Origin: a virus
Direction: 5' to 3' (one strand)
IMG/VR virus record: IMGVR_UViG_3300033232_000028
Coordinates: 1-41,838 of that record
DNA length: 41,838 bases
The position numbers and the translations under genes are program-made. This document shows positions 2,246 to 41,838 of this stretch, one piece after another. The notes under the pieces were generated by a model that saw only the letters and a program-made list of their open reading frames with translations, did not search any database and was not told the DNA's origin. Position 1 is the first letter of the stretch, and every line of letters starts with the position of its first letter.

Positions 2246-2472
2246 ATCTCCTCTCTGTACTTCTTAGTTGCCCAGTACTCAATGTCATGCAGTTTAGCTT
2301 GAATATCTGCACAGTTAGCTCTGATAACTGCAAGTAATATTCTGTTAGGCTCAGGCTGCCGCATGTTAAGTTCCATCTCAGCAATCAGCTCATTAATCTT
2401 AATGGTTGCTTCACTTGCTTTAATTTGGATTTCAGTGCTACTGTTATCTGGAGGTGTTGAGATTGTGCTCAT
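2242..2472 (-). CDS. Hypothetical protein (76 aa)
   Basis: 4-nt overlaps with both neighbours suggest translational coupling. Predicted helical. Confidence 0.55.
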   Translation of the reverse strand: MSTISTPPDNSSTEIQIKASEATIKINELIAEMELNMRQPEPNRILLAVIRANCADIQAKLHDIEYWATKKYREEI

Positions 2473-3755
2473 GATAATGCATCCTTTTCTTCTTTGGTTA
2501 GGAGATTGAAATTTACAGTATTACTCTTGAATCCTGTGTCAGCTTCTTTAAGTACTTTCTTCTTAGGCAGAAATCCCTTTGGAGTTGACTGGATTTTATC
2601 TGCTCTGGATAAGTTTTCAAGCACAGTTGTCAGTTCAGTTGCCTTATCCAAATCCTTATGTACAAACTGCCAAAGCTTTACTGCATTGACTGGTTCAAGT
2701 GAAGCTTCAATAACTTGTAAAATCTTATGTGCTACATCTGCATGTTTAGCTTTACCGAATTCACCAAGTGCTTTTGGCATGAAGTGTTCAGCATATGATA
2801 GTGTCGTATTCGCATAGATTACATCCTCCTCTGTTACAGTTGATGAAAACCTGATTGTCGCAAGTAGCATACACAACTTAAGTAGATGTGTGAATCGTCG
2901 ATTGGAATAGGATTCAAAGCGCGCATCTTCTAGGTCTCCCCAGCCTTTATAAATCACATCTAATAAGTCTTTAGCTGAAGGTGATAACGTGAGCGCGCCT
3001 ACACTTATTGCATGTGTCTTAATCTCTCTGAGAGCAGTAACAAGTTCAAGAGTGTGCTTTGGGCAAGGAGGCTCTGGCCAAGTAATCTTAGCCCGAGTTC
3101 TCTCTCCGTAAATCATGAGAGTACGACTAAAAAATCCTTGACCTAGAATCTCAATAGGGAAAGCTGCACTAAATCCAGTAGGAGTGTTACCTCCTAGGAT
3201 ATTAATGGTTGGGTTCATAATCTGAACACTCTTGGAGTTCTTTACTTTAGATTCAAATTGTCCACTGTAATCCCAGAGTTCACCAAGGTCAGTTACAAAG
3301 TCAAGTATATTGTTACCGAAGAAAGTATTGAATTCTCCTGCAACAATAAACATTTCGGAGACAGTCGAGGTGTCATCTTCTCTAGCTCCAAACAAAGTTT
3401 GCTCAAGAAAATCTTCACCATTGCTGGCTCCAACCCCATTAGACTCTGCCATATCAATAAAGAACTTTTCTTTGGTAGTCTTTGTCGGACTGAAATGAGT
3501 GTAGCCTGACTGTCTAAGAAGTCCCTTAGCAATATTAATTGCGGATGATTTCCTACTACCTGCACTTCCAATGAGTAGAGTGTATAAGTTTGGGTAGAGT
3601 GTAAAGTGTCCATGATGTAAGTAGATATCTCTCGATAAGTATGCTGCTACACAACTTAAGATACTCCAGCGATGGAATATTGCTGGAGGTTCGGTATCAG
3701 ATGTGTAGTGCAGATAACTTGTTATTAGATCATTAGGGCTGGAAGGGTTTGTCAC
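2469..3755 (-). CDS. P-loop NTPase, DUF3987-like (candidate replicative helicase / D5-type helicase-like)
   Basis: Walker A-like LLIGSAGSRKSS follows a hydrophobic N-terminal region, as in DUF3987 proteins. It lies directly downstream of the DNA polymerase. Confidence 0.55.
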   Translation of the reverse strand: MTNPSSPNDLITSYLHYTSDTEPPAIFHRWSILSCVAAYLSRDIYLHHGHFTLYPNLYTLLIGSAGSRKSSAINIAKGLLRQSGYTHFSPTKTTKEKFFIDMAESNGVGASNGEDFLEQTLFGAREDDTSTVSEMFIVAGEFNTFFGNNILDFVTDLGELWDYSGQFESKVKNSKSVQIMNPTINILGGNTPTGFSAAFPIEILGQGFFSRTLMIYGERTRAKITWPEPPCPKHTLELVTALREIKTHAISVGALTLSPSAKDLLDVIYKGWGDLEDARFESYSNRRFTHLLKLCMLLATIRFSSTVTEEDVIYANTTLSYAEHFMPKALGEFGKAKHADVAHKILQVIEASLEPVNAVKLWQFVHKDLDKATELTTVLENLSRADKIQSTPKGFLPKKKVLKEADTGFKSNTVNFNLLTKEEKDALS

Positions 3756-6748: not shown

Positions 6749-6780
6749 CACTCTATCACTCTATCACTCTATCACTCTAT
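6749..6780. repeat. Tandem repeat (cactctat)x4
   Basis: Four perfect 8-bp units. The TAG stop of 6777..7127 lies in the first unit when read on the minus strand. Confidence 0.95.
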
Positions 6781-7127
6781 CTGTTTCTATCAATGTCATA
6801 GAAATGTGGAGAGTGCAACTCAGGAGCTTGTGTCTCTCCTAAATGCTGTGGCGTTTCTGGGTACTTCTCAAGTCTTGCAATTTCTGCCTCAGCGTAGAAC
6901 TTAATCTTCTTAGCATCACGCAGTTGAGAAGAGTGAGATACTTTTCCGTAGCGATAACATGCCCGGAATATTTCTCCAATCTGTGAATTCATATTACGAA
7001 ATGAAATCAAGTCTTGAAGCTGTGAAGTTCCCGCAGGTAGTTCATAGTAAGAAGCTGTACTGCCATCACTGATTGTTGGTGTGGAATACGCTGTTTGTAC
7101 AGATGTTCGTGGTGAAGCTGGCATCAC
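6777..7127 (-). CDS. Hypothetical protein (116 aa)
   Basis: 4-nt overlap with the upstream DHH gene. No recognisable motif. Confidence 0.55.
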   Translation of the reverse strand: MMPASPRTSVQTAYSTPTISDGSTASYYELPAGTSQLQDLISFRNMNSQIGEIFRACYRYGKVSHSSQLRDAKKIKFYAEAEIARLEKYPETPQHLGETQAPELHSPHFYDIDRNR

Positions 7128-8206
7128 AACTCTCTCCTGTTAGGGTAAAAGAACTTATTCAATAATTCAATCGAGGACAGCTTAAAACCTGCTGCATTCT
7201 TGTGGCCACCTCCACCAAACTTAGCTGCAATCGCTGACACATCGAAGTCACCATTAGAACGAAGTGAGCATTCAACTGCTCCCTGAGTGTCTATATGCCA
7301 ACAGAGTCCATAGGTTCCAGACTCAGTTGCAAGGTGATGACCTACGTCAGAAGCTAGATGCTTAGGGCAATTAGCTGCAAGGCCTACTACTGCAACTTGG
7401 CGAGACATTGAAAGAGTCTTACCATCTTCGTGAGGATTATCAATTACATGAGATTCAAAGAACGTAAGTGAGCATTCACGTTTGGATGCAGCAATGATTG
7501 ATTGTACATTCTGGTTATGTGCTCTTAGGATTGCAGCACCTTCAATGCGCATATCAACATAAATAGCATTGATAGGATGTTTGTCCAACTCTAAGAACAT
7601 GCTGTTCCACTGTTCAAAACTCCAAGGAGCATAAGACCACAATGCTTTATTGAACTCTTTAGTTCCGTCAATCTTAAATTGCCAGCGATCATAGTCATCA
7701 ATGTGCTGAATCAGCTTAGGAGTCCCCTCTGATGGATGAAAGTAGTTCCAAGCAATCAATGCCCCAGAGCTGGTGTTATCTAAGATCACATGATGCAATG
7801 AGTTATAGCTAAACTTACCAATAGCTACTGCATCACAGAAATCATTACAGCTAGTATTAACTGGGAGACCGTACATATCAAATGCAGACTTGTGATGATC
7901 CAGCCAGATAACATTACTGCATCCAGAGAACAATGCTTCCATGATACTAACTGGAAAGCTGAAGTCTAAGATGTAAACCACTCGATCAGTTGTGCTGTAC
8001 TCAATATCTCCTACAGTAAGATACCCTGTCTCTACATTAAACTTAAAGCCATTGTAACTGACAGGTACATAGATTGCACCCTCAGCTCCTAAAGATTTCC
8101 ATGCTGCAAAGGCTGCACCAAAACCGTCAGCACAGTTAGCGTGATAGAGAACTAGAGGTAAGTTAGTGTTAGTGTTAGTGTTAGTGTTAGTGTTAGTTGT
8201 ATTCAT
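7124..8206 (-). CDS. DHH/DHHA1-family phosphoesterase (RecJ/NrnA-like)
   Basis: Motifs are YHANCADGFGAA, LDHHKS (DHH) and GGGGHKNAAGF (DHHA1). The N-terminus MNT(TN)6 is encoded by a hexanucleotide repeat. Confidence 0.8.
   Translation of the reverse strand: MNTTNTNTNTNTNTNLPLVLYHANCADGFGAAFAAWKSLGAEGAIYVPVSYNGFKFNVETGYLTVGDIEYSTTDRVVYILDFSFPVSIMEALFSGCSNVIWLDHHKSAFDMYGLPVNTSCNDFCDAVAIGKFSYNSLHHVILDNTSSGALIAWNYFHPSEGTPKLIQHIDDYDRWQFKIDGTKEFNKALWSYAPWSFEQWNSMFLELDKHPINAIYVDMRIEGAAILRAHNQNVQSIIAASKRECSLTFFESHVIDNPHEDGKTLSMSRQVAVVGLAANCPKHLASDVGHHLATESGTYGLCWHIDTQGAVECSLRSNGDFDVSAIAAKFGGGGHKNAAGFKLSSIELLNKFFYPNRREL
8162..8197. repeat. Tandem repeat (gttagt)x6, coding (ACT AAC)x6 on the minus strand
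   Basis: Six perfect 6-bp units form codons 4-15 of the DHH gene. Confidence 0.95.
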
Positions 8207-9431: not shown

Positions 9432-9464
9432 TTAGGTTGTACTTAGGTTGTACTTAGGTTGTAC
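9432..9464. repeat. Tandem repeat (ttaggttgtac)x3
   Basis: Three perfect 11-bp units. The first unit on the minus strand encodes the last codons and the TAA stop of the nuclease gene. Confidence 0.95.
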
Positions 9465-10392
9465 TCTTAGCCAGCTGTGCTTCAATTAAATCTTCCACAC
9501 TGAGTGAGATGTGGAATGCTGCATGATCTTCTAGAATCTTAACTTCTTGCTCCTGGGTAATTGGAACAGTCAGCAAGGATGTTGAGAGTGTGCATGTATT
9601 AAGATAGTCACACTCCCGATAGTAATTGAAACAAGATTCTCCATGCATAGGATAGACTCCAGCACTCTCGTAGAGTCTAATTGTCTCACAGTCCAGAAGA
9701 AGTTCCTGAATCCAGAGAGCGCGTTGCAGGTAACTCTTTTTAAAAGGTAGAGGGAAGTACTCTCTACTCTTAGTCATGTATACAAGATAGAGTACTTCAT
9801 AAGCTGAGAGTGAGGGGAACAATACATCAAGTACAATGCTGTATCCAATTGCTTGCGCTGAGTTCTTAAATGTGGCAGGGTTAATTGATGCAGAGCCTGT
9901 AGTCTTAACTTCCAGAATCTTAATTGCACCAGTAACTTTATGCCTCAATACAGCATCCACATAGCCACGGTATTTAAATCCATTAGGTAGATGAATGATG
10001 AAGGAGAGTTCTACTGCTGGAACTTCTGTGTCTGAATCTGCTGGAGTATAATACACTAACTCGTAATCATCTAGCAGAGTTGACTCACGCACATACTGGA
10101 ACCGCTCAATTGCAAGCATTGCTTCCCAGAAAGACTTACGCATCTTAGTATCTTCTGCCATTAAGTCTGCTTCCCAAGTAAGGAATGCATTCCAGTAGAT
10201 GGTATCTAAGTCCTTATGCTGGAGTACATCTTGAAGTCCTGCTCCTACTACATGGCCAAGAGAGAATGTTACTTGAGACTTTTCATCTACACTAGCCCTA
10301 GCAGTTCCAAGCTTAGATAGTTGGAACTTCCTTGGACAGGCGTGGAGTAGGAGGTTAGAGGAATAGCTGAGTTGTTTGAGTCTTGTGTCCAT
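9454..10392 (-). CDS. PD-(D/E)XK nuclease, Cas4/RecB-like with a 4-Cys cluster
   Basis: N-terminal HACPRKF. The nuclease core is GYVDAV...ILEVKT, with a QAIGY motif. The C-terminal cysteines are CFNYYRECDYLNTC. Confidence 0.8.
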   Translation of the reverse strand: MDTRLKQLSYSSNLLLHACPRKFQLSKLGTARASVDEKSQVTFSLGHVVGAGLQDVLQHKDLDTIYWNAFLTWEADLMAEDTKMRKSFWEAMLAIERFQYVRESTLLDDYELVYYTPADSDTEVPAVELSFIIHLPNGFKYRGYVDAVLRHKVTGAIKILEVKTTGSASINPATFKNSAQAIGYSIVLDVLFPSLSAYEVLYLVYMTKSREYFPLPFKKSYLQRALWIQELLLDCETIRLYESAGVYPMHGESCFNYYRECDYLNTCTLSTSLLTVPITQEQEVKILEDHAAFHISLSVEDLIEAQLAKSTT

Positions 10393-11410: not shown

Positions 11411-11647
11411 TCATAGATCCTCAGGTGAAAGATATAGTTTCAATCTAAAAAAGATCATGTTACCTTCACTTTTTGAAAGTACCTTTGCATTCCTATTTGC
11501 TTCAGCTAATTCATACCTGAATCCAGTGTCCATAGTTCTCTCTTTCAGGACAGCTTTAATTAGGCGTGCATGTAGATGTGCTGGATGCACAACTGTGACA
11601 CGTTTCTTTTGTTTTAACTGTAGCCAAATAGGAGTGTACTTACGCAT
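11411..11647 (-). CDS. Hypothetical basic protein (78 aa)
   Basis: ORF abutting the next gene. No recognisable motif. Confidence 0.5.
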   Translation of the reverse strand: MRKYTPIWLQLKQKKRVTVVHPAHLHARLIKAVLKERTMDTGFRYELAEANRNAKVLSKSEGNMIFFRLKLYLSPEDL

Positions 11648-11673: not shown

Positions 11674-11700
11674 GATTGGATTGAGCGATTGAGCGATTTG
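11674..11700. repeat. Imperfect tandem repeat (gattgagc), about 3 copies
   Basis: gattg-gattgagc-gattgagc-gatttg, in the spacer between 11708..11851 and 11411..11647. Confidence 0.8.
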
Positions 11701-12036: not shown

Positions 12037-12711
12037 TTACAGATTAGCCAGCAGTTCTTCCTCCGACATATTCATCAACTTATCAGCCTTTTCAGTCAGG
12101 AAGTTAATGCACTCGACATACTGTTCTGCATTCGTTGCGCCTTCAGTATAGATACCGAGTTGATCCACCAGCAGACCCAAGACTTTCTTGTTGGTTTTAA
12201 CAGCAGCAAACTTGTTAGCAAAGTTACGAGCTGCATTCTCCACTTTGTCCACAGTCTTACCAGTGAGCGAAGGCATAACAGCGATGTAGTCTTTGATAAA
12301 CTCTTCCCACGTTTCTTTGGGAATACCGCCGCCACGACGTTCTGCTTTCGGCAGCGATGCAATCTTATCCCACAACAGCTCCTCATACGGGAAACTAGTT
12401 GCATCAATATCTTCGTTCTCATTAATAATTTCACGAGCACGACTAACAACAACATCGGCAGCAGCTTCAAGCAGAAGTTCCAGACCTTTACCGCCAGTTT
12501 CCAGAATCTTAACAAGACCTTCAACCGAAGGCTTCAAGACTGGGAGAGTAATAGTCGGACGCTTGTACTCAACACCAGTCTTTTCATCGGTGACTTTACG
12601 GAAAGAGAAGTTAACCTCTTGCACATCCACAGTGTTATCGAAGTTAGCTTGCACATCAGATACTGCAGGAGTAGAGGAGGGAGCAGCGGGGTTTTGGTTT
12701 TCTTCAGACAT
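12037..12711 (-). CDS. Highly expressed standalone hypothetical protein (224 aa)
   Basis: ATG at 12711 follows AAAGGA. A consensus promoter lies about 100 nt upstream of the ATG. Codon usage is CTG/CGT-rich like the capsid gene, and four of six frames are open across it. Confidence 0.8.
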   Translation of the reverse strand: MSEENQNPAAPSSTPAVSDVQANFDNTVDVQEVNFSFRKVTDEKTGVEYKRPTITLPVLKPSVEGLVKILETGGKGLELLLEAAADVVVSRAREIINENEDIDATSFPYEELLWDKIASLPKAERRGGGIPKETWEEFIKDYIAVMPSLTGKTVDKVENAARNFANKFAAVKTNKKVLGLLVDQLGIYTEGATNAEQYVECINFLTEKADKLMNMSEEELLANL

Positions 12712-12808
12712 TTTAATTCCTTTCAATTGAAGTTAGAAACAACGTTGTTGGAAGCGGGGTTTAGAATGGAATTAAGCAAGAGGCTTCCGTTGCTCAATCC
12801 ATACATGC

Positions 12809-13639: not shown

Positions 13640-15412
13640 TCAATTACCTAGGTACCTGCCCTTAAAGAACTCTGCTTTCTCAGCAAGAGTGTTACCTTTG
13701 ATCTTCTGACTGATTACACCTTTAACAAATGTATCAGGCTCACAAATAACATAGACTTCTGAGCGTGCTCGGGTGAGAGCAGTATACAGAAGCTCACGCT
13801 GTAGCATGGTAGCATGTGATTGATGCAGCATTACAAATACTTTCTCCCACTCAGCACCTTGAGACTTATGTACTGTGAGAGCGTACCCATGCAGCATAGA
13901 ATTAACTTCACTTGCTGTTTCTAGTGTGACTTCTTCACCAGAATCAATCATCTGAACTGTGATAATGTGAGAGGCAGCTGTTACTCTAGCTTCACCATTA
14001 GAGGTTGATGACATTTCAGATAGCATCTTCTCTACATCTTCCTCTGTAAGTCCAAGCTCATTAGCTGCTGTTACTTCACGAGCAGCTAGTATTGCTTCTT
14101 CTGAACCTTGTTCACACCCCCAATAATCTAGAGTCGGTGAAGCTGGCTTAGGCTTCTTAGTTCCTGTGTATGATGCATTCTTATTGATTGATACTATGAT
14201 CGCATCTTCTTTATCATACATTACTCGATCACCTGGAGAAAAGTAATGAAATAAGAAACCTGCAATTACTTCATAAGTTGTTGCACCTCTCTTTCTTGCC
14301 AGATGATTAGCAATGTTTTTATTTAATTCTAGTGTACCGAATGATTTATTAAATGGACACAGTACAATGTGTTCTTCTGGATCATAGGCTCCTAGATCAA
14401 TTGCTTGCTTAAGGAATGCAGCAGCAGTAGCTAGAGCATCTTCACCTCGTAATTGTTTCTTCCAAGGATGAAATGTAATCTTACCATCTTCAGTTTGTTC
14501 AACGTGTTTGGATTTAAAACTGAATGTCTCTCCATTTTTAATTGCTGTAGCGTACTTAATGATAGGAGAATTAGCTGCTTGTCTGTAAATCTCTGTTAGT
14601 TCGATTACAGGCAATTCTTGCATCCGATAGCCTAGAACAGCTGAACCAAATACTGGGGGCAGCTGATTGATATCTCCTAGATAAATCTTTTGTACGTGGT
14701 GAGGGGATGCTATATTAATCTCTTCTTCAAGTTCAAGAGATACCATTGATGCTTCATCAATCACAATAGTTTTAATTGATTGATCTAATGGGTTGCGTGA
14801 AGATCGTGATGGAACAAATCGCATAGTTTTCTTATCTTCACCTGTTTCAGGATCAAATACTTCATAGTATTCAGGTTGATATTCAAGTAACTTATGGATT
14901 GTGATGCAGTTGTCTTTGAAGTCAGCGCTAACAGCTCGTTTAAGATTATTAACTGCGCGCCTAGTAAATGATGTTAGCACTACTGAAGGCGTACCAATTG
15001 GAAGATATTTATGTACACCTTCTAATTGTACTGCTCCAACTTTCTGTGCAAGTGCAGCAATTACAGCTTTGATACAAGTAGTTTTACCTGTACCTGCTGC
15101 TCCAATTAGAACACAATCAGCTCCAGAGAGAACTAGATTCATAAACTCTTGCTGGCGCTGATTTAATACAATGTCTCCAGAAAACTGCGCATGAGGAATG
15201 AGAGTCTCAGCAGCTTGTTTGAGTGCTGTATCTACAGAAGTTGAGTCTACAGAAGTTACAGATGCCACTTTAGATAGGTCTATATGTACTCCTGGGAGTG
15301 TAGATTGCTCTCTAGATTGCTCTCTAGATTGCTGAAGTTTCTTAAGTGCTTGGGCGGCTCTAGCTTTAGCTAGTAATTCAGCTAGAGGAGTTGGTCTCAT
15401 TGAGGTACTCAT
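13640..15412 (-). CDS. SF1 helicase, RecD/Dda-like
   Basis: Walker A is LIGAAGTGKTT and Walker B is IVIDEASMV. Also present are LGDINQLPPV and the C-terminal TVHKSQGAEW, LYTALTRA motifs. Confidence 0.9.
   Translation of the reverse strand: MSTSMRPTPLAELLAKARAAQALKKLQQSREQSREQSTLPGVHIDLSKVASVTSVDSTSVDTALKQAAETLIPHAQFSGDIVLNQRQQEFMNLVLSGADCVLIGAAGTGKTTCIKAVIAALAQKVGAVQLEGVHKYLPIGTPSVVLTSFTRRAVNNLKRAVSADFKDNCITIHKLLEYQPEYYEVFDPETGEDKKTMRFVPSRSSRNPLDQSIKTIVIDEASMVSLELEEEINIASPHHVQKIYLGDINQLPPVFGSAVLGYRMQELPVIELTEIYRQAANSPIIKYATAIKNGETFSFKSKHVEQTEDGKITFHPWKKQLRGEDALATAAAFLKQAIDLGAYDPEEHIVLCPFNKSFGTLELNKNIANHLARKRGATTYEVIAGFLFHYFSPGDRVMYDKEDAIIVSINKNASYTGTKKPKPASPTLDYWGCEQGSEEAILAAREVTAANELGLTEEDVEKMLSEMSSTSNGEARVTAASHIITVQMIDSGEEVTLETASEVNSMLHGYALTVHKSQGAEWEKVFVMLHQSHATMLQRELLYTALTRARSEVYVICEPDTFVKGVISQKIKGNTLAEKAEFFKGRYLGN
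15301..15334. repeat. In-frame tandem repeat (tagattgctctc), about 2.8 copies
   Basis: Encodes SREQSREQS in the helicase N-terminus. A second 12-bp pair (tctacagaagtt) lies at 15231-15258. Confidence 0.9.
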
Positions 15413-16083: not shown

Positions 16084-17214
16084 TTAGATATCTTCATGCT
16101 TATGCAAGGTTGTTACAGTAACTACTTCTGCATCAGTAGCTCGTCTAGCTGGAGCAGGAGAATCACTCTGAAAATCACTCTGAGAATCACTCTTATCAGA
16201 TTTTGAGGAAGTTATTACTTCTCCTATTGCTCCATACTGCTGTTTCATTCTGTATCTTGCTTTAGCTCTTACAAATTCAATTTCACTAGAGTAATTTGTT
16301 CTAACTGGCATTTCTGTAGGTGCATTCTGCATCATTACCAGCTTGTTAGTTGTTTCTACTACATCCTCAGAGGAGAGTGTCCCATTCTTAAATGCTACAA
16401 TATCGAAGTCAGAGAGACATAGGTAACTGCTTTGTGAGCGTTTTCCTGCCCGCAATAAATCCATTAAAGATGCAGCACTGATCGAACCATGAGGAATATG
16501 CTCTTCACAATGAGTAATCAATTCTTCCACATCCGCTGCAGGATACTGAAATATCTTTTCTTCACGAATACATGCAGTAATGATTTCTTTCCAGTAGTTA
16601 GCTAATGTTATTGGATTTTTTGTTAGAGGATGTAAAAGTACGAATGATGGAAACTGTCCAGCTAATTCCGCCCAATTAGCAAGAGCGATAGAGTATTTTT
16701 TAGCATTCTTTAGTTGTGTTGATTTAATCATACGCTCTAGTGCATACTCGCGCCTTGATATTCTCTCTTGTTCTGTTTGTTCTTTATATCCGCGCATGAA
16801 TTCAAGGAATGATTCATGCCAAGCTTCTACCCAATGCTTTACATTTTCAAGAGTGCAAGTGTCCCGAGTAATTGCAAATGATGGGAGTACAAACTTAGGA
16901 TGATGAATCAGATTAATTTTACCAATGATTTTGATCAATGGCTCCATATTAGTTGCTACTAATGCATCAGTGTTATTTGTTCTATGAACTGCATGTCTCC
17001 ACTCAAGTAATGATGTTGAATTCATGAGAGCAAGAAATAGGAGATATGAGTCAGTGGTTGTTAATTCTCCGGCACTCCATTTAGAGGAGTAACTTAGCAG
17101 CTTGTGTTGAGGTAATAGGAATACTGGATGGGAACATTCAGAATTGTTTAATGCCATTGGAAAGTGGTCGCATTTAAATACGATTCCACTGTATGCACAT
17201 GTTATTGTTGCCAT
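16084..17214 (-). CDS. Hypothetical protein (376 aa) with an N-terminal Cys/His cluster
   Basis: AAAGGAG RBS. The N-terminus is CAYSGIVFKCDH...ECSH. The C-terminus carries the low-complexity SDKSDSQSDFQSDS tail. Function unknown. Confidence 0.65.
   Translation of the reverse strand: MATITCAYSGIVFKCDHFPMALNNSECSHPVFLLPQHKLLSYSSKWSAGELTTTDSYLLFLALMNSTSLLEWRHAVHRTNNTDALVATNMEPLIKIIGKINLIHHPKFVLPSFAITRDTCTLENVKHWVEAWHESFLEFMRGYKEQTEQERISRREYALERMIKSTQLKNAKKYSIALANWAELAGQFPSFVLLHPLTKNPITLANYWKEIITACIREEKIFQYPAADVEELITHCEEHIPHGSISAASLMDLLRAGKRSQSSYLCLSDFDIVAFKNGTLSSEDVVETTNKLVMMQNAPTEMPVRTNYSSEIEFVRAKARYRMKQQYGAIGEVITSSKSDKSDSQSDFQSDSPAPARRATDAEVVTVTTLHKHEDI
16160..16195. repeat. In-frame imperfect tandem repeat, 12 bp x3
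   Basis: gaatcactctga / aaatcactctga / gaatcactctta, within the 3' end of 16084..17214. Confidence 0.85.
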
Positions 17215-17538: not shown

Positions 17539-18186
17539 TTATACATCTGTGAACTTAGATGCTGCTACTTCTGGCTCAATCTCAGCGCCTGTTACTAATG
17601 AGCTAAGTACTGTTAGTTCTGCATCTTGAGTAGGGGTAAGACCTGACTCCATTGATAGCATAAACAACGTATTCATTCTTTCTTCTTGACTCTCCTTAGT
17701 TGGATATAACTGCTTAATTGCTTCAATTGATAAAGCTGTTTCATTGATTGATTGAAAGCTTGATCCTACACAGTGGGGCGAAGGTACTACCCTTGCTGCT
17801 GTTTGTCTATTTAATACAGCTTGTGCTAACTTATCTTTAGTACTTAGTTTCCAATATACATTCATTGGAGAGAACATAAAAGCTTCTCTCTTTCTTTTAA
17901 GTTTAGCTTGCGAAAAGGTGAATGTATCTGGATTATCAGGAAGTACTGAGGTATCAGCAATGAATTGTATTAATCCAGCAGTACCTCTCCACGCTTCTAT
18001 AATATCTTGTACTCCGTAGTTAGCATACATATTTCTCCAAGCTTTATAATAAGCTGGATACTCTTGTTTAATTGCTGCTTGCTTCTCAGTTGCAGATTCT
18101 AAATCTGGAGCATAAATATTTGCAATACTTTCATTATATTCTACCTCTAAATGTTCTGTTTGGCTCATTGTAATCGTGGCTTCCAT
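17539..18186 (-). CDS. Hypothetical protein, possible DNA-binding protein (Y..W..M ... W....F..F..D pattern)
   Basis: YKAWRNMYANYG...AWRGTAGLIQFIADT resembles a motif recurrent in phage DNA-binding and homing-endonuclease-associated domains. The match is weak. Confidence 0.5.
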   Translation of the reverse strand: MEATITMSQTEHLEVEYNESIANIYAPDLESATEKQAAIKQEYPAYYKAWRNMYANYGVQDIIEAWRGTAGLIQFIADTSVLPDNPDTFTFSQAKLKRKREAFMFSPMNVYWKLSTKDKLAQAVLNRQTAARVVPSPHCVGSSFQSINETALSIEAIKQLYPTKESQEERMNTLFMLSMESGLTPTQDAELTVLSSLVTGAEIEPEVAASKFTDV

Positions 18187-18208: not shown

Positions 18209-18370
18209 TTACAAATCAAACAAATCTTCACAGTATTCAGTGTCATCATCAAGTACTACCTGTTTAGGTTGTTGTTTTAATGATATTCCTGCTGCTACTG
18301 CATTCCTAGGTTTATATCCTATTTCATAGTGCAAACAGTGATGTGGACATATCTCTATTAACTTAGCCAT
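18209..18370 (-). CDS. Hypothetical small protein (53 aa from ATG 18370)
   Basis: The ATG overlaps the stop of the upstream small ORF (tATGGCTAA). The track start is the GTG at 18394. Confidence 0.5.
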   Translation of the reverse strand: MAKLIEICPHHCLHYEIGYKPRNAVAAGISLKQQPKQVVLDDDTEYCEDLFDL

Positions 18371-18500
18371 AAATTCCGGGCCAACCTCTATCACCTTTAG
18401 ATACTTTAAATGTCCATCCAGCTTGTCTTAGGCGAGTCGCTATTAGAGAGGATGTAGTTAGTATCTTTAATTGAACCTTGTATAATTCTAGGCTTTTCAT
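18363..18500 (-). CDS. Unannotated small ORF (45 aa, MKSLELYKVQLKILTTSSLIATRLRQAGWTFKVSKGDRGWPGIYG)
   Basis: ATG at 18500 with AAAGAGGG 6 nt upstream. It is the first ORF behind a perfect consensus promoter. It falls below the 60-aa cutoff of the track. Confidence 0.55.
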   Translation of the reverse strand: MKSLELYKVQLKILTTSSLIATRLRQAGWTFKVSKGDRGWPGIYG

Positions 18501-18512
18501 AGGAACCCTCTT

Positions 18513-18542
18513 TAATCATAATCATAATTATAATCATAATCA
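18513..18542. repeat. Tandem repeat (taatca)x5, one taatta variant
   Basis: The hexamer array supplies the -10 and most of the spacer of the promoter at 18527-18555. Confidence 0.9.
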
Positions 18543-18555
18543 TGTTTTTTGTCAA
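18527..18555 (-). promoter_or_regulatory. Perfect consensus sigma70-type promoter, TTGACA-N17-TATAAT
   Basis: The minus strand reads TTGACA (18555-18550), a 17-nt spacer, then TATAAT (18532-18527). The ATG of the small ORF is about 27 nt downstream of the -10. Confidence 0.85.
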
Positions 18556-18632
18556 CCCCCCTGTCCCATCCTGTATTTTGGATGGTGTTATCTATACTCT
18601 TTGTTATCCCTATGCCTAACTATGTTATCCCT

Positions 18633-18675
18633 ATACCTAGATACCTAGATACCATACCTAGATACCTAGATACCT
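18633..18675. repeat. Iteron-like array: 21-bp unit atacctagatacctagatacc x2 (atacctag x5 in total)
   Basis: Read directly from the sequence. It is flanked by tgttatccctat x2 (18601-18612 and 18622-18633). Confidence 0.9.
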
Positions 18676-18862
18676 TATTACCCTGCATGGCTACGGTTCG
18701 TTTGTCTATATTACCCCCCTTCTTAAATTTTAAACATAAGAGGAGGAGAGATAGATAACAACTAGAGATTATAGGTAGACAGATAACAACACGTGAATAG
18801 GAGTAATAACATTAGGAGAGGGGAGAAAAAAGGGGTCAGGGAAAGGGGGGTCAAATCATTTT

Positions 18863-18904
18863 ATGAATATGATTATGAATATGATTATGAATATGAATAT
18901 GATT
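18863..18904. repeat. Tandem repeat (atgaatatgatt), about 3.5 copies
   Basis: 12-bp units. The array is an approximate reverse complement of the taatca array at 18513-18542. Confidence 0.9.
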
Positions 18905-18916
18905 AAATGGGGTTTT

Positions 18917-18952
18917 AAAAAACTGTCTACAAACTTAATCGAATGTAGACAG
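18917..18952 (-). terminator. Rho-independent terminator downstream of 19012..19656
   Basis: Minus strand: CTGTCTACA - 12-nt loop - TGTAGACAG (9-bp perfect stem), followed by TTTTTT. Confidence 0.8.
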
Positions 18953-18956
18953 TAGA

Positions 18957-18998
18957 TTAAAAACATCTAATTAAAAACATCTAATTAGAATCATCTAA
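18957..18998. repeat. Tandem repeat, 14 bp x3 (ttaaaaacatctaa, third copy variant)
   Basis: Lies 13 nt downstream of the stop of 19012..19656. It contains the core ATCTAAT, which is shared with the array at 21175-21216. Confidence 0.9.
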
Positions 18999-19011
18999 TT
19001 CAAACTCGCAA

Positions 19012-19656
19012 TTAAAGCGCCATCAACAAATCATTATCTGATTTTTTAGTCAATCGTTCAGTGAATCGAATTCTCAAATAATCTTCCGAATCAACAAATT
19101 CCAATGCTTTAATCATGTTAGCAGATTGTGAGGAATTGAATGAGGCAGCACCAGAAGCAAGTTTAGCAAATGAATCTTCATAACCTTTCAGAATCACAGT
19201 CAGTTTTGTTTCTTGATCAGAAGATGGAGCAGAATCTTCTGGAATTCCAAGCTTAGATGCAAACGCGAGCATTAATGGCTCTTTCAGTGATTCAGTAAAC
19301 CAAGCTCGAATATCATCACCTGTAAGGCGGCCAGATTCAGCCTGAAGATAGCTGACAACAGCACTTAATGCAATATCGTCATCACTGATTGAAACTGACC
19401 CAGACTCGATTTTAGTTCTGACAATCTTATCCTGCACTGAATGCACAAGACCTAGAAACTCATTCTTGAGTACTCCTAGATACGGCTCAACTTGTTCCCA
19501 GTCAGTAATCGGGATGCTAACAGCACGTGATGGTGGCTTAACTCCTGTTGCCTTATCAACCTTATAAGTCACCTTTGCAAGTCTTTGCCCCTCAAGAGGC
19601 TTAGTTTTACCGCTGACATAGCTGGTGACAGAATGGATGCTGGAGATATTAGACAT
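19012..19656 (-). CDS. Early hypothetical protein (214 aa)
   Basis: Third ORF of the first minus-strand unit, followed by a strong terminator. It shows by-eye similarity to 12037..12711. Confidence 0.7.
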   Translation of the reverse strand: MSNISSIHSVTSYVSGKTKPLEGQRLAKVTYKVDKATGVKPPSRAVSIPITDWEQVEPYLGVLKNEFLGLVHSVQDKIVRTKIESGSVSISDDDIALSAVVSYLQAESGRLTGDDIRAWFTESLKEPLMLAFASKLGIPEDSAPSSDQETKLTVILKGYEDSFAKLASGAASFNSSQSANMIKALEFVDSEDYLRIRFTERLTKKSDNDLLMAL

Positions 19657-19670
19657 GATAGGCTCACTTT

Positions 19671-19694
19671 CAATTAATCAATTAATCAATTAAA
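19671..19694. repeat. Tandem repeat (caattaat)x3, third copy caattaaa
   Basis: Lies immediately upstream of the start region of 19012..19656. Confidence 0.9.
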
Positions 19695-19762: not shown

Positions 19763-19927
19763 TTACCTTGTTGGATACTTACCAAACATCATGTAATAGC
19801 ATGAGTCAAAATCAACCCCAAGTTTAGCGCAATGCCGCGCAAATGCCCAGTGTCCCCACTGTTTAATCTTAGCTTCTGCTTTCTCAATCTTGATGGTTTC
19901 CATTGTTGTTTCCATTGTTGTTTCCAT
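19763..19927 (-). CDS. Unannotated small early ORF (54 aa, METTMETTMETIKIEKAEAKIKQWGHWAFARHCAKLGVDFDSCYYMMFGKYPTR)
   Basis: The start overlaps the upstream stop (TAATG). The first 11 codons are a 12-bp tandem repeat. Below the track cutoff. Confidence 0.5.
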   Translation of the reverse strand: METTMETTMETIKIEKAEAKIKQWGHWAFARHCAKLGVDFDSCYYMMFGKYPTR

Positions 19928-19931
19928 TATG
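19896..19931. repeat. Tandem repeat (gtttccattgtt)x3, third copy ends atg
   Basis: Encodes METT METT MET on the minus strand. Confidence 0.95.
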
Positions 19932-20088
19932 CTATCACCTCATAAACATTGTTAAACCTGCCATAACCAAACAGCTTAGGGCTAAGTATTTGTGCGCTCC
20001 TGAGACTCTTAGCAATGATACAGCCTAGCCGCTTACCTGTTGTAATGTCAATGACAATGTAATGGTTGTAATGGTTGTAATGGTTCAT
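19927..20088 (-). CDS. Unannotated small early ORF (53 aa, MNHYNHYNHYIVIDITTGKRLGCIIAKSLRSAQILSPKLFGYGRFNNVYEVIA)
   Basis: ATG at 20088 is preceded by GGAGAGGGAAG. It is the first ORF of the minus-strand arm, and its N-terminus is a 9-bp tandem repeat. Confidence 0.5.
   Translation of the reverse strand: MNHYNHYNHYIVIDITTGKRLGCIIAKSLRSAQILSPKLFGYGRFNNVYEVIA
20059..20085. repeat. Tandem repeat (gtaatggtt)x3
   Basis: Encodes (NHY)x3 on the minus strand. Confidence 0.95.
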
Positions 20089-20538
20089 ACTATCTTCCCT
20101 CTCCTATCTCCGTTGTTGATGTAGTTATTATAGTCATTCCCTTCAAGTTACCTATAGTACATTCATACTAATTTGCATAGTACATTCATACCACTGAGTG
20201 AGCAAGTGAGCAAGTGAGCTATCAAGTAAGTACCCACTAACATAACTATCTCCTGCAAGCAAGACTCATGCCAGCAACCAAGTAAGTAAGTGCTCACTAA
20301 CAAAGTGCCTACCCCCTGAGCCTTTTTTACAATCTGGCCGCTATCCTATCCTATAACGTTTACCAGATTTTCCTAAAAAATTTACAAAAACTCCACATAG
20401 TCAGGTAACTAACTACTTCATTCTGCAAACCCTACTAACACTAACTGCACTTCTCTGTCATAATGTTCATAATGTTACTATTCTGTAAGACAATAGCATA
20501 CACTCCATCTGCGCATACACTCCTGTAGGACTCTAATC
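20089..20538. promoter_or_regulatory. Divergent noncoding control region between the early (minus) and late (plus) arms
   Basis: 450 bp without credible ORFs, dense in direct repeats. These include atagtacattcatac x2 (20154, 20177), gtgagcaa x3 (20198-20221), caagtaagta..cactaaca x2 (20223, 20279), ctatc x3 (20341) and cataatgtt x2 (20459). Only weak -35/-10 candidates are present. Confidence 0.6.
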
Positions 20539-21180
20539 ATGCAATCTACACCAGCTGCACAATCTAACATTCAATCAAGTACTCATGGCATCGCTTCCAG
20601 CACTGAGGAGCGAGCACTTGTTTTACTTGGCCAAGGCATTTCACCTGAAGCAACTGCTTCTGCTTGTGGAGTATCAGTATCCAGAATCTCACAACTTCTC
20701 TCTGAGGACTCATTCGCTGCTGCTGTTGCAGCTCTCAGGTATGAAGCACTTCAGAAACACAATGCCCAAGATTCTCAGTATGATGAAATAGAATCAGCAT
20801 TAACTAAGAAATTCAAAGAGTCTATTCCTCTCATGATGAGACCGATGGAGATACTGAAAGGATTACAAGTAATTAATGCACAGAAAAGAAGAGGAAGTTC
20901 TGCTCCTGAATCTATCCTCGAAAAGCAACAAGTAGTTAATATCACTCTACCATCTGTTATCATTAACAACTTCACCAACGCAGCTCTAACTACCAATATC
21001 CACAACCAAGTAGTTAAGGTTGGTGATACTGATCTAACCACAATGCAATCTGGCACACTGCTGAATTCGCATAAAGTAGCAGAAGGATTAAGAAATGAAT
21101 CAGTCATTCAAGAACGAGTTAGAGAACTCACAGCTCCAACAATCCAAGAGCCTCCCAAATCAAAATACGAAGATATCTAA
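20539..21180 (+). CDS. terS: Terminase small subunit-like DNA-binding protein
   Basis: First late gene, directly upstream of terL. It has an N-terminal HTH-like segment, LLGQGISPEATASACGVSVSRISQLL. Confidence 0.5.
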   Translation: MQSTPAAQSNIQSSTHGIASSTEERALVLLGQGISPEATASACGVSVSRISQLLSEDSFAAAVAALRYEALQKHNAQDSQYDEIESALTKKFKESIPLMMRPMEILKGLQVINAQKRRGSSAPESILEKQQVVNITLPSVIINNFTNAALTTNIHNQVVKVGDTDLTTMQSGTLLNSHKVAEGLRNESVIQERVRELTAPTIQEPPKSKYEDI

Positions 21181-21216
21181 TACATCTAATATATCTAATA
21201 TATCTAATATATCTGA
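21175..21216. repeat. Tandem repeat (atctaatat), about 4.5 copies
   Basis: 9-bp units. The TAA stop of the terS-like gene (21178-21180) lies in the first unit. Confidence 0.95.
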
Positions 21217-22857: not shown

Positions 22858-23198
22858 CGGATCTCTCTATGCAACCTGATTCTGACGCCATCAATGTACT
22901 TGAACTTATCAATGCTTCTCATGGTGATCTCTTAATGAAACGAGCAGACTTACCTGATGATGATCCTCTCCAGCAACTTATTGCTCCATTTGAACATAGA
23001 GCATTTGCTAGAGAGCAAGCTCAGCAGAATCCAATAGCTACAGCTATTACTATGCCATTCATGATCCCCGGTTATGCAATGATGAAAGCATTAGGACTTC
23101 AATCAGGACGTACTCCAGCTTCCATTGAGCAAGTTAAACAAGGCTATCTTGGCTTGCATGAAGGCCTTAAAGCTTCACTGTTTGGCACACGCAAGTAG
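22836..23198 (+). CDS. Hypothetical protein (120 aa; alternative ATG at 22869)
   Basis: ORF between terL and portal. The GTG start overlaps the end of terL. Confidence 0.5.
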   Translation: MQFFTLLTDLSMQPDSDAINVLELINASHGDLLMKRADLPDDDPLQQLIAPFEHRAFAREQAQQNPIATAITMPFMIPGYAMMKALGLQSGRTPASIEQVKQGYLGLHEGLKASLFGTRK

Positions 23199-23228
23199 TT
23201 TCAAGCTAGTTTCAAGCTAGTTTCAAGC
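23196..23228. repeat. Tandem repeat (tagtttcaagc)x3
   Basis: Three perfect 11-bp units. The first TAG is the stop codon of 22836..23198. Confidence 0.95.
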
Positions 23229-23279
23229 TGTCACTTAATTATCTCACTCAACCATTTTAACGGGCTTTCCTATCTTGTT

Positions 23280-28735: not shown

Positions 28736-29053
28736 ATGTCAGATTGGTTTAACCTATTGACAGGCAATGAGTGGCAGCATTACATTCCGTTTGCAGCGCT
28801 TGTAGCAAAACAGCCTATACCAGAAAATAGACCAGCTGCAACAAGAATAATTGAGCAGGGCTTTGTTGGATTAATAGCCTCTGCTGTCACCTTACTTGCC
28901 ACAGTTCAAATTATGCAGAATGATATTGAGGCTTTAAAGAAAGACGCTGATAAGAGAGAGGCGATTGCTGCTAAAGCTGTTGCTGACTCTGAGGTACGTG
29001 TTACAAGTCAAATTCAAGAACTGCGTTCAATTATGTTGCGCGCAAATAGATAG
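28736..29053 (+). CDS. Membrane-anchored coiled-coil protein (holin or i-spanin-like candidate, or virion protein)
   Basis: One hydrophobic segment, GFVGLIASAVTLLATVQIM, is followed by a charged helical region. Confidence 0.5.
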   Translation: MSDWFNLLTGNEWQHYIPFAALVAKQPIPENRPAATRIIEQGFVGLIASAVTLLATVQIMQNDIEALKKDADKREAIAAKAVADSEVRVTSQIQELRSIMLRANR

Positions 29054-29082
29054 CTTAATAGCTTAATAGCTTAATAGCTTAA
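29051..29082. repeat. Tandem repeat (tagcttaa)x4
   Basis: Four perfect 8-bp units. The first TAG is the stop codon of 28736..29053. Confidence 0.95.
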
Positions 29083-29101
29083 TAACTCGGTAAATAATTC
29101 A

Positions 29102-40486: not shown

Positions 40487-41838
40487 ATGGCATTTACAAT
40501 TCCTGATAAAGACGAAGGTCTAAATAACCTCCAAAGTGTTTGGTTCCAAGAGTACATTGATGTGCTTGTGGCTGGAGTAGGTAGCAATGATGCAGTAATT
40601 TCTGGCTGCGCTGTTACTCCTTCTGCTGGCATGACACTCGCAGTTGCTGCTGGCTTGGTTAACTCTGTAGGCGTAGCCTATACTGTAGGTGTTGCTAACC
40701 CAGTGATTGGTGCAGCTGATGCAACTTATGCACGGCTGGACTTTGTTGTAGTTACTTCTGCTGGAGCAGTTGCTGTTCGTGCTGGAACTGCTGCTCTTAA
40801 TCCTAAACCTCCTGCAAAAACTGCTGGTGATGTTGTACTTGCTGTTGTGTATGTGCCTGCAGGAAGTGTAGCTGTTGGAGCTAATCAGCTTGTTGATATG
40901 CGGGTTGGAGTAAGTCCTAAGTTAGCAGCAATTGTTAATGGCTCAATGGGCGCATTCAGCCACCGCAACAAGATCATCAACGGAGCGATGGTGATTGCGC
41001 AGAGGGGGACTAGTTTCCCCACCACTATTAACCACACGCACTACCTTGACCAGTGGCGGTTGAACTTCATTGGTGGCGCTTATTCAATAGCACAGTCCAC
41101 AGATGTACCGCCCAGTGGAGAATTTCAGTACAGTATGCGTGCTACTGTCACCACTGCTAACCCTACTGTTGAGGCTGGGGAGACTGGGTGCTTACACCAC
41201 AGGATTGAGGGTTACGCCGTTCGTGATTTGGTGGGGCGCACATTCACTGTATCGTTCTGGGTACGAAGCCCTAAGACGGGTGTGCATTGTTTGTCGTTTA
41301 GAAACAGTACTGCTGATCGCAGTTATATTGCGGAATACACCGTCGATACTGTGAACACGTGGGAGTATAAAACGATCACTGTGACTGGTGGTTTGCCAAC
41401 TGATGGTACTTGGAATTTTACAAACGGTATCGGGCTGCAGGTGTGGTTTACTTTCCTAATCGGCTCCAGTTTTACCACAACAGCAGGTTCATGGGTCACT
41501 GGGGATTATCTCGGCAGCCCGAACCAAGTGAACTGTATGGACACAATTGGCAACGTTGTGGCTATCACTGGTGTACAACTTGAAGCTGGCCCAGTGGCTA
41601 CCTCATTCGAGCACCGTCCGATTGGTACTGAGTTGGCTTTGTGTCAGAGGTACTACTACCGTAATTCTGATGGTGGGTCTGGTTTGGCTACTTTTGGCGT
41701 AGGTGTCGCAACAACTACAAGTCTTGTAGAAATTTCAATCCCGCTACCACAAACAATGCGAGCTGTGCCCACGTTTTCTTATTCTTTTGTACAACTACTG
41801 GACGGTATTGGTTCCATTGGTATACAGGGAATTTCTCA
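40487..41838 (+). CDS. Tail fibre protein (5' part; ORF continues across the junction to 257, 493 aa in total)
   Basis: The ATG lies 1 nt after the upstream TAA and there is no stop before the window end. The sequence is Gly/Ala/Val-rich, with NKIINGAMVIAQRG and GVQLEAGPVATSFE motifs typical of phage fibre receptor-binding regions. Confidence 0.8.
   Translation, partial: MAFTIPDKDEGLNNLQSVWFQEYIDVLVAGVGSNDAVISGCAVTPSAGMTLAVAAGLVNSVGVAYTVGVANPVIGAADATYARLDFVVVTSAGAVAVRAGTAALNPKPPAKTAGDVVLAVVYVPAGSVAVGANQLVDMRVGVSPKLAAIVNGSMGAFSHRNKIINGAMVIAQRGTSFPTTINHTHYLDQWRLNFIGGAYSIAQSTDVPPSGEFQYSMRATVTTANPTVEAGETGCLHHRIEGYAVRDLVGRTFTVSFWVRSPKTGVHCLSFRNSTADRSYIAEYTVDTVNTWEYKTITVTGGLPTDGTWNFTNGIGLQVWFTFLIGSSFTTTAGSWVTGDYLGSPNQVNCMDTIGNVVAITGVQLEAGPVATSFEHRPIGTELALCQRYYYRNSDGGSGLATFGVGVATTTSLVEISIPLPQTMRAVPTFSYSFVQLLDGIGSIGIQGIS
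41712..41838. repeat. Terminal overlap, identical to 1-127
   Basis: Exact 127-nt identity with the window start. Confidence 0.95.

Follow-up and report, generated by a model that had tools for sequence, protein, structure and literature searches.

What is the role of a gap of about 510 bp, dense in repeats and devoid of genes, that stands at the head of the replication operon of a phage? The locus belongs to the IMG/VR virus record IMGVR_UViG_3300033232_000028, all 41,838 nucleotides of which were analysed (the window). Positions 1-127 and 41712-41838 of the window are identical (127 bp), so that the assembly is circularly closed; the window is a complete circular phage genome of ~41.7 kb, with a real length of 41,711 bp. 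A first-pass annotation of the sequence had drawn attention to the gap between two minus-strand genes, and called it a candidate origin or regulatory hub. That description stands, as the region is a discrete, conserved, non-coding cis-element (18504-18916, with a terminator extending to 18952) that is present in single copy and is the only repeat-dense gap of the genome. It lies inside a minus-strand block, between the conserved early gene for a 214-amino acid (aa) protein (19012-19656) and the first open reading frame (ORF) of a long replication operon. From its sequence we propose, with a probability of roughly 0.4, that the element is a replication origin fused with the promoter of the replication operon and its control.

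The gap was confirmed to contain no credible ORF. Peptide similarity among relatives appears in all six frames over the same blocks of DNA, and conservation is therefore at the level of nucleotides and is not coding. A known structured RNA was considered and rejected, since Rfam gave nothing at gathering thresholds over the whole window and nothing at E ≤ 1 over 18300-19200. A search for tRNA and tmRNA found none.

The element is built from two arrays of a short motif placed on either side of a core. Following the direction of the flanking genes (i.e. along the minus strand), arm A (18853..18916) comes first. It comprises an outer box AAAACCCCATTTAATC (18901-18916, minus strand) and an array of about seven hexamers of sequence ATGAAT or ATGATT (18861-18905) that read on the plus strand; Tandem Repeats Finder (TRF) delimits a (TATGAA/TTATGAATATGA) array at 18861-18902. 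Arm B (18504..18546) has an array of five hexamers ATGATT or ATAATT (18513-18543, i.e. (TAATCA)x5.2) that read on the minus strand, and an outer box GATTAAAGAGGGTT (18504-18517) that holds the likely ribosome-binding site. The hexamers of both arms point away from the centre. The arrays are an inverted pair with 85% complementarity over 40 nt, confirming the imperfect inverted arms of the first-pass annotation. Alignment of arm A with the reverse complement of arm B gives a score of 50, while shuffled sequences score 17 on average with a maximum of 28. The hexamer word ATGATTATGATT, allowing up to one mismatch, occurs nine times against an expectation of 0.49, and all nine occurrences are within the two arms. 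The duplex stability of arm A is among the lowest in the genome, ranking first for windows of 100 bp and second for windows of 50 bp.

The core between the arms has two halves of differing composition. Next to arm A is an inner box GACCCCCCTTTCCCTGACCCCTTTTTT (18825..18852, read on the minus strand) with G:C runs and a TGACC motif. This is followed by a pyrimidine-rich, G-poor half (18741..18824, minus strand) that contains two copies of GTTGTTATCT and the sequence TTCACG-N18-TATAAT; AGATAACAAC is also present twice, within a repeat pair at 18749-18771 and 18777-18799. The centre (18691..18740, minus strand) consists of an A/T-rich stretch (18720-18740), a G6 run (18714-18719), TAATATAGAC (18704-18713) and AAACGAACCGTAG (18691-18703), and there is a single exact copy of the centre motif in the genome. 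Beyond it the purine-rich, C-poor half (18562..18690, minus strand) contains tandem repeats and a small hairpin CCATCC...GGATGG (18566-18585). The repeats are (CTAGGTAT)n, which can be read as ATACCTAG in 5.8 copies (18633-18675), and a 21-nt repeat pair containing GGGATAACA / TGTTATCCCTAT (18599-18640), with CTxTGTTATCCCTAT present twice. Runs of six C or G are found at 18556-18561, 18714-18719 and 18845-18850. The first-pass annotation had located these runs, five copies of ATACCTAG, two of TGTTATCCCTAT and the AGATAACAAC pair correctly.

The downstream arm is combined with a predicted promoter. A G6 run abuts a sigma-70-type promoter (together 18527..18561, minus strand) with TTGACA at 18555-18550, a 17-nt spacer and TATAAT at 18532-18527. 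The two hexamers match the consensus at 12/12 positions with a spacing within the 16-18 bp expected of -35 and -10 elements, and this is the sole such site in the genome. As had been noted from the outset, the promoter is directed outward from the element. The array of arm B covers its spacer, -10 hexamer and transcript start. At the other end of the element there is an intrinsic terminator CTGTCTACA...TGTAGACAG followed by T6 (18917..18952, minus strand), with a 10-bp stem and U6, ΔG = -16.8 kcal/mol and z = -6.9; it is predicted to close the upstream early operon. The 14-nt array that had been reported beside this terminator is also present, comprising 3.5 tandem copies of ATTAAAAACATCTA (18956..19004, 88% matches in TRF) directly after the stop codon of the 214-aa gene.

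The strongest indication of function comes from related phages. The 214-aa protein has 43 metagenomic homologues at E ≤ 1e-3, and DNA was fetched around many of these and read in the gene direction, corresponding to the minus strand of the window (individual loci are given L numbers below). The same layout was found in at least 22 related metagenomic phage loci, with 29-88% identity in the 214-aa protein. The stop codon of the upstream gene is followed by small tandem repeats, a terminator formed by a hairpin and a T-run, and array A of a short tandem motif. There follow a G:C homopolymer run with a TGACCCCTTTTTT-like box and then the half rich in pyrimidines. A stretch that is almost purely A/T ends in AATTTTAAAG and gives way to 3-9 G or C, after which come TAAAAATAGAC and CCGTA(A)G. 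The purine-rich half leads to a G-run that directly adjoins TTGAC(A/T/C/G)-N17-19 with its -10-like hexamer, and array B, of the same motif as array A, lies over the spacer, -10 and start site. Last come a ribosome-binding site and the gene that opens the replication operon. The layout is always directly upstream of this operon, which encodes a Dda-like helicase, a PD-(D/E)XK nuclease, an AAA_24 ATPase, a DHH phosphoesterase, PolA and DUF3987. On the other side, one to three small genes lie between the 214-aa gene and the element in some distant relatives, and the element therefore travels with the downstream operon.

Within this layout the parts are conserved to different extents. Of the 20 columns preceding the central G/C run, 17 are at least 82% A/T over 22 loci, and the run itself (3-9 G or C) is followed by T-A-A-A-A-A-(T)-A-G-A-C. 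The TGACCCCTTTTTT motif of the inner box is kept in most relatives. The pyrimidine-rich half is kept in length and composition and is variable in sequence. The promoter pattern, including its G-run, is found in 16/20 loci listed; two of the other four are cut by contig ends and still show GGGTTGACA or GGGTTTGACA. Centre and -35 hexamer are 169-173 nt apart in 7/9 window-clade loci listed and 139-142 nt apart in six distant loci, a spacing that is kept within clades despite hypervariability of the intervening sequence. An equivalent of the terminator (hairpin and T-run) is found at the same place in L001, L002, L004, L006, L010, L043, L044 and several distant relatives, and other small tandem repeats take the place of the 14-nt array.

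The elements that are fixed throughout the family are thus the outer arrays, the G:C runs, the A/T-rich centre with its TAAAAATAGAC motif, and the spacing. The core repeats are not among them. In L001, L043 and L044, the closest relatives (their 214-aa proteins are 82-88% identical), the repeats ATACCTAG x5 and TGTTATCCCTAT x2 are missing, and unrelated sequence stands at that position next to a nearly identical centre. When viral contigs were scanned for exact matches to the ATACCTAG repeat nothing was found, as would fit a repeat specific to one lineage, and both core repeats look like lineage-specific tandem expansions. The first-pass annotation had taken these repeats as the iterons of an origin, and had suggested comparison of the locus across related genomes. 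The comparison shows the locus kept as a unit in at least 22 phages and the presumed core iterons not conserved; an origin is still the best single reading of the element, with the iterons sought in the arms instead of the core.

We note that repeat density alone does not make the island special, since short tandem repeats are a habit of the whole genome. There are 16 perfect short tandem repeats where 0.25 would be expected (~60-fold enrichment), and 12 of these are outside the region of the element (6749-6781, 8162-8197, 9432-9465, 11679-11698, 15301-15333, 19670-19693, 19896-19928, 20058-20085, 20197-20219, 21184-21214, 23196-23229 and 29050-29084). They have units of 6-12 nt in 2.5-6 copies, each with a different unit, and almost all lie just 5′ of start codons or across them. 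Two duplicate the start codon itself, giving the N-termini METTMETTMET... and MNHYNHYNHY.... The relatives share the habit, using other units. These start-codon repeats could arise by polymerase slippage, by selection on the length of the leader, or as multiple starts. What is special about the island is the pairing of its arrays and the conservation of its layout.

The motif of the arrays varies between genomes, and yet the two arrays of any one genome match. On comparing arm A with the reverse complement of arm B across genomes in a matrix, we can recognize classes of motif: ATGATT in the window and L008; AATCAA/ATCCAA in L001, L004, L006, L012, L043 and L044; AACCAA in L002; GGGCATAG in L010; and TTGNCA with an 8-nt period in a distant clade. 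The window is informative here. Its arms belong to the L008 class, while its core, 214-aa gene (82-88%) and small terminase (86-93%) group with L001, L043 and L044. L008-class arms on an L001/L044-class backbone indicate that both arms have changed together, and the arms are therefore functionally tied. The sole difference between L008 and L009 is two extra ATGATT units in arm B, so the copy number is flexible, as it is with iterons. Within the window clade the arms match in inverted orientation (scores 39-60, compared with 14-22 direct). In distant relatives they match equally well or better in direct orientation (43 direct and 24 inverted in L039; 30 and 28 in L025). For this reason the family-wide occurrence of two same-motif arrays around a core has the look of arrays of protein-binding sites, which fits better than a hairpin.

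How might such an element work? From the anatomy and its conservation, the matched arrays of each genome, the promoter and terminator signals and the fold of the helicase, we infer protein binding, duplex opening and initiation of replication, as follows. A phage-encoded DNA-binding protein would occupy both arrays of short repeats (~5-8 copies each) flanking the core. The duplex would then open at the nearly pure A/T centre with TAAAAATAGAC, where the replicative helicase (the MCM-like DUF3987 protein) would be loaded, and the melted zone would be bounded by the G:C runs. The strong promoter in the downstream array would fire away from the centre, leading to expression of the replication genes and at the same time putting negative supercoiling into the core, and the array-binding protein could also shut the promoter. 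Early transcription would be kept out of the locus by the upstream terminator. The centre has the look of an unwinding site because of its A/T-rich columns followed by a G/C run and motif, its fixed distance from the -35 hexamer, and the low stability of the arms.

The replication machinery also fits an origin, by analogy. The DUF3987 helicase gene (2469-3755) lies ~15 kb from the element, and a model of its product matches MCM helicases (Foldseek E about 1e-6). At the C-terminal end the model has a helix-helix-helix-strand-strand arrangement that resembles a winged helix. DUF3987 proteins are described as superfamily 6, MCM-related replicative helicases with a winged helix-turn-helix at the C-terminus (PMC4889955).

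A number of observations weigh against an origin. None of the window proteins that were checked (the 214-aa and all other early proteins, PolA, DUF3987, AAA_24, the small terminase, and the 215-aa and 376-aa proteins) tracks the class of the arms; all follow the general phylogeny. In particular the DUF3987 protein is 78% identical to the L008 type and 81% to the L004 type, and so does not covary with arm class, and the high conservation of its winged-helix region is a poor fit with variable arm motifs. There are 15 kb between the element and the helicase gene, while in the staphylococcal pathogenicity islands (SaPIs) the origin adjoins rep on its downstream side, and the arms are ~300 bp apart compared with ~80 bp in SaPIs. 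Since tandem repeats arise throughout the genome, the structure of the arrays may be partly mutational in origin. Moreover, a plain operator would equally well present itself as arrays that overlap a promoter. The first-pass annotation had proposed cumulative GC skew as a check, counting an extreme situated elsewhere as one of two findings that together would speak against an origin. The extremes are indeed elsewhere, at 11.8 and 32.6 kb and not at 18.7 kb, and GC, AT and purine skews show no extreme at the element. GC skew carries little weight either way in a phage of 42 kb whose transcription runs in two opposed blocks, and we regard it as uninformative.

The array units resemble promoter hexamers, and this leads us to consider a variant, of low probability in our view, in which the element is an undescribed origin-promoter module of phages with MCM-like (DUF3987) helicases, its flanking arrays being built from look-alikes of promoter hexamers. 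The array units of the window clade (TATGAT/TATAAT/TATCAT) resemble a -10 element, those of the distant clade (TTGACA/TTGGCA/TTGCCA, 8-nt period) resemble a -35 element, and others are TTGATT/TTGGTT. The sigma factor of the host RNA polymerase, or a sigma-like factor of the phage, instead of a classical initiator would be gathered on both sides of the A/T centre, and replication would then be started by transcription-coupled opening or by synthesis of a primer RNA. Sigma factor, or the polymerase as such, might thus be what reads the arrays. Alternatively the two arms, once single-stranded, would pair to give a duplex promoter again, in the manner of M13 ori(-) or ssoA. This variant would account for our finding no arm-covarying initiator and for the sole consensus promoter being part of an array.

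The main rival to a replication origin is that the locus is concerned purely with transcription. The arrays would then be operators for a phage repressor or timer that, on binding and possibly on looping the core (~300 bp), switches the promoter, with no role in initiation. We consider this possible, if doubtful. It would explain why arm B overlies the spacer, -10 and start site of the only consensus promoter of the genome, as its counterparts do in every relative, and why an operator-like palindrome TTATCATTATTGATAA lies over the -10 hexamer in L044, L012 and L006. Tandem repeats of 6-8 bp are typical operators of ribbon-helix-helix repressors (e.g. the 8-bp met boxes of MetJ and the 7-bp heptads of omega), constant spacing between the centre and the -35 hexamer would suit a looped complex, and the combination of terminator and promoter marks a boundary between early and middle genes. 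However, a core of 270 bp with a deeply conserved A/T-rich centre and motif is not obviously needed to switch a promoter, and retention of the G:C runs where neighbouring proteins are only 29-40% identical would be left unexplained. No arm-covarying regulator was found among the proteins checked, and a second promoter of the same flavour, GGGGTTGACA-N17-CATAAT (12840-12812, minus strand), which is upstream of a conserved 229-aa gene (12037-12726), has no arrays at all. A feature peculiar to promoters of this lineage may be a G-run immediately before the -35 hexamer. That same conservation of order, spacing, centre motif and G:C runs at 29-40% identity of neighbouring proteins also makes it unlikely that there is no function beyond a terminator and a promoter, i.e. 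that the remainder is a repeat-prone spacer generated by tandem-duplicating replication, or the relic of a palindromic duplication or of insertion of a miniature inverted-repeat transposable element (MITE). The 60-fold enrichment of short perfect tandem repeats, the unconserved core repeats and the drifting copy number of the arrays are all as would be expected of such a spacer, but neutral DNA would have been randomized, and the arms would not change in concert.

Two further explanations take the paired arms as their starting point, and both are less probable than these. The arms, together with the pyrimidine- and purine-rich halves, might pair to form a long imperfect hairpin in read-through RNA or in single-stranded DNA, serving RNase III-type processing, the masking of translation, or hairpin priming like that of M13 ori(-) or plasmid ssoA; we think this very unlikely. 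Folding of the whole 416 nt gives z = -6.05 for the minus strand and z = -5.35 for the plus strand, and the gene-direction strand is the better folder in 10/15 loci. In the window clade quasi-palindromy reaches into the core (the self-alignment score of L008 is 94-146, and in L001 GTAGTTACCTTATT pairs with AATAAGGTAACTAC), the arm sequences differ between genomes yet are complementary within each, and the ribosome-binding site would be hidden if the outer boxes AACCCCATTTAATC and GATTAAATGGGGTT paired. Against this, a wobble test showed no strand bias, with 138 G:T and 111 A:C mismatches alongside 301 transversion mismatches and many gaps, although this is not decisive. Changes in the outer boxes of L004, L006, L008 and the window are uncompensated, the G:C runs change strand with no compensating change in the partner run, and the copy numbers of the two arms are unequal, varying even between the near-identical L008 and L009. 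The arms of distant relatives are as similar direct as inverted, there is no match to an Rfam family, and in the genome as it stands arm A lies beyond a strong terminator while most of arm B is upstream of the transcript start. Least probable of all is a packaging (pac) site, in which the small terminase would bind the arrays and cut in the core, by comparison with P1 pac (sets of hexamers flanking the cut site) or SPP1 pacL/pacR. A single-copy core between two arrays, ~1.5 kb from the gene for the small terminase (20539-21180), is what might be looked for in a pac site, and the circular assembly is compatible with headful packaging. Yet the small terminase is 93% (L044) and 86% (L001) identical, with a near-identical helix-turn-helix (HTH; one conservative S/A change), in phages whose arm motifs differ, and is just 61% identical to that of L008, with which the arm motif is shared. 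The element is moreover tied to the replication operon and not to terS, with intervening genes in some relatives. Contig ends of the relatives fall at many positions. Three independent assemblies break within the arrays, those of L041 and L042 at one identical base of arm A and that of L001 in arm B (11109); these breaks are artefacts of assembly in repeats and not genome termini.

An origin of replication with a built-in promoter is thus the reading that we favour, and some more specific identities could be discarded. The first-pass annotation had offered a MITE-like insertion and a small RNA locus as alternatives. Inverted termini are present, but the element is single-copy, has no target-site duplication and occupies the same syntenic site in at least 22 phages, and in every relative examined that had enough sequence and a recognizable layout; this disposes of a MITE. 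The promoter-like TTCACG-N18-TATAAT suggested for a small RNA does exist (18797-18768, minus strand), but it is not conserved in relatives and the locus has no match in Rfam. An inverton is excluded by the orientation of the centre motif, the same in 22/22 loci, by a promoter that is in an arm and not between the arms, and by the absence of a recombinase domain among the proteins scanned. A DnaA-dependent, oriC-like origin should have a cluster of TTATCCACA boxes. There are just look-alikes matching at 7/9 positions (TTATCCCTA), restricted to the subclade of the window and missing from L002, L004, L008 and the distant relatives.

The genome has two opposed blocks of genes. The minus-strand block, in which the element lies, runs from ~20300 down to ~2000 and includes the Dda-like superfamily 1 helicase, PD-(D/E)XK nuclease, AAA_24 ATPase, DHH phosphoesterase, family-A DNA polymerase and DUF3987 genes. 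The plus-strand block extends from 20539 onward and begins with the small terminase-like protein (weak matches to HTH_23 and to PHROG terminase). The relatives carry SU10-type capsid and portal genes. Comparison of the region with 50,697 deposited phage genomes by blastn gave no nucleotide match, the 214-aa protein likewise found nothing by tblastn in those 50,697 records, and no polymerase of an isolate exceeds 32% identity to the family-A polymerase. The cultured Polaromonas phage Tiera (L054; PolA 30% identical) has a similar genome plan, with a 781-bp non-coding gap (43391-44172) heading the replication operon and containing a 68-bp direct repeat. It lacks both the architecture described here and a homologue of the 214-aa protein, and so cannot be used as a model for the element.

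Searches of Pfam, PHROG, NCBIfam and PDB sequences with the 214-, 215- and 376-aa proteins gave no match. An AlphaFold2 model of the 214-aa protein, of medium confidence (pLDDT, the predicted local distance difference test, 74), has three short strands at the N-terminus and then a bundle of helices, and found no significant fold match or structural neighbour. Its C-terminus is acidic (DNDLLMAL in the window; consensus DDDLLMAL). An acidic tail and abundance in the first operon are reminiscent of phage single-strand-binding proteins, although nothing backs that assignment. Downstream of the element the first 'gene' (18209..18500, minus strand) is a decayed SprT-like metalloprotease, recognized in two frames by tblastn with the L004 protein. 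Of its two remnants, ORF 18363-18500 matches residues 1-40 of the intact L004 protein (148 aa) and ORF 18209-18394 matches residues 91-147, and the middle, with the HExxH-like CHEMAH motif of the catalytic core, is deleted. The Pfam SprT-like match is that of the L004 product and not of the window ORFs. We also note that three otherwise unrelated proteins of the window share a C-terminal tail K-[Y/F/H]-[E/T]-D-[I/V], that is HKHEDI in the 376-aa protein (16084-17214, minus strand), SKFTDV in the 215-aa protein (17539-18186, minus strand) and SKYEDI in the small terminase (20539-21180, plus strand). Just these three window ORFs of at least 40 aa have a K-x-[E/T]-D-[I/V] tail, a looser [E/T]-D-[I/V/L] end being found in ORF 11411-11647, and the tail is retained in the relatives. 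It looks like a docking peptide for one common partner.

We found no Rfam family, isolate or published description for the element. If it is an origin, it would be of the kind that combines iterons with an unwinding element, and not a new category. Phages with a DUF3987 (MCM-like) helicase are a very large and mostly uncultivated group, and 2974 homologues of the helicase were found at E ≤ 1e-30. To our knowledge no origin has been defined for this lineage, for which a conserved and easily recognized cis-element would be a concrete candidate origin with a built-in promoter. Arrays that switch their motif together are a natural experiment on the co-evolution of a cis-site and its reader, and the arm motif could possibly serve as a marker of specificity or incompatibility in the classification of these phages. 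Even if only regulatory, the element would still be the main early-to-middle switch of the lineage.

How does the element compare with known systems? Iteron origins such as lambda ori, P4 ori/crr and those of iteron plasmids likewise have repeats beside an A/T-rich region, with repeat sequences that coevolve and are specific to the replicon. In those with autoregulated rep promoters the repeats overlap the promoter of the replication gene, and the same protein could initiate and autoregulate. The repeats are 17-22 nt in iteron origins but 6-8 nt and strictly tandem here, no Rep, O or alpha-type initiator was identified in this phage, and DnaA-box-like words (TGTTATCC) are confined to the subclade of the window. 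The pac sites of P1 and SPP1 are, like our element, single-copy cis sites with a central region between two sets of short repeats, but here the small terminase does not covary with the arrays, and the element goes with the replication operon, whose promoter it contains. The arrays bound by ribbon-helix-helix proteins (MetJ met boxes, omega heptads, ParR/parC) are also strictly tandem, with 4-8 copies of 6-8-bp units in direct or inverted orientation overlapping a promoter, and in R1 parC the repeats are on both sides of the promoter. The conserved 270-bp core has no counterpart in such arrays, and no ribbon-helix-helix or partition protein was recognized among the phage proteins searched.

The closest known layout is, by analogy, that of the SaPI origins. 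They differ in the shorter distance between their arrays (~80 bp, compared with ~300 bp here, where a composition-skewed core and a conserved centre motif intervene), and in their position immediately downstream of rep, whereas our element is 15 kb from the helicase gene. Here one array contains a strong promoter, no link is seen between helicase sequence and array motif, and DUF3987 has no detectable sequence homology to SaPI Rep (searches of PDB sequences were empty). In SaPI origins an A/T-rich region is flanked by 6-12 iterons of five or six nucleotides, divided equally between its two sides and facing in opposite directions, and a self-loading helicase of the same AAA+ clade binds them through its winged helix (PMC9371898). 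The element likewise has short tandem iterons (5-6 nt in SaPIs, 6-8 nt here) on both sides of an A/T-rich centre. In the window there are five ATGATT-type hexamers on the minus strand (18513-18543) and about seven on the plus strand (18861-18905), and the same arrangement is found in relatives. In both systems the two sets are oppositely directed and variable in number, the sequence of the iteron is specific to the element, and the replicon encodes an MCM-related AAA+ helicase with a C-terminal winged helix, or in this phage a domain modelled as winged-helix-like (PMC4889955).

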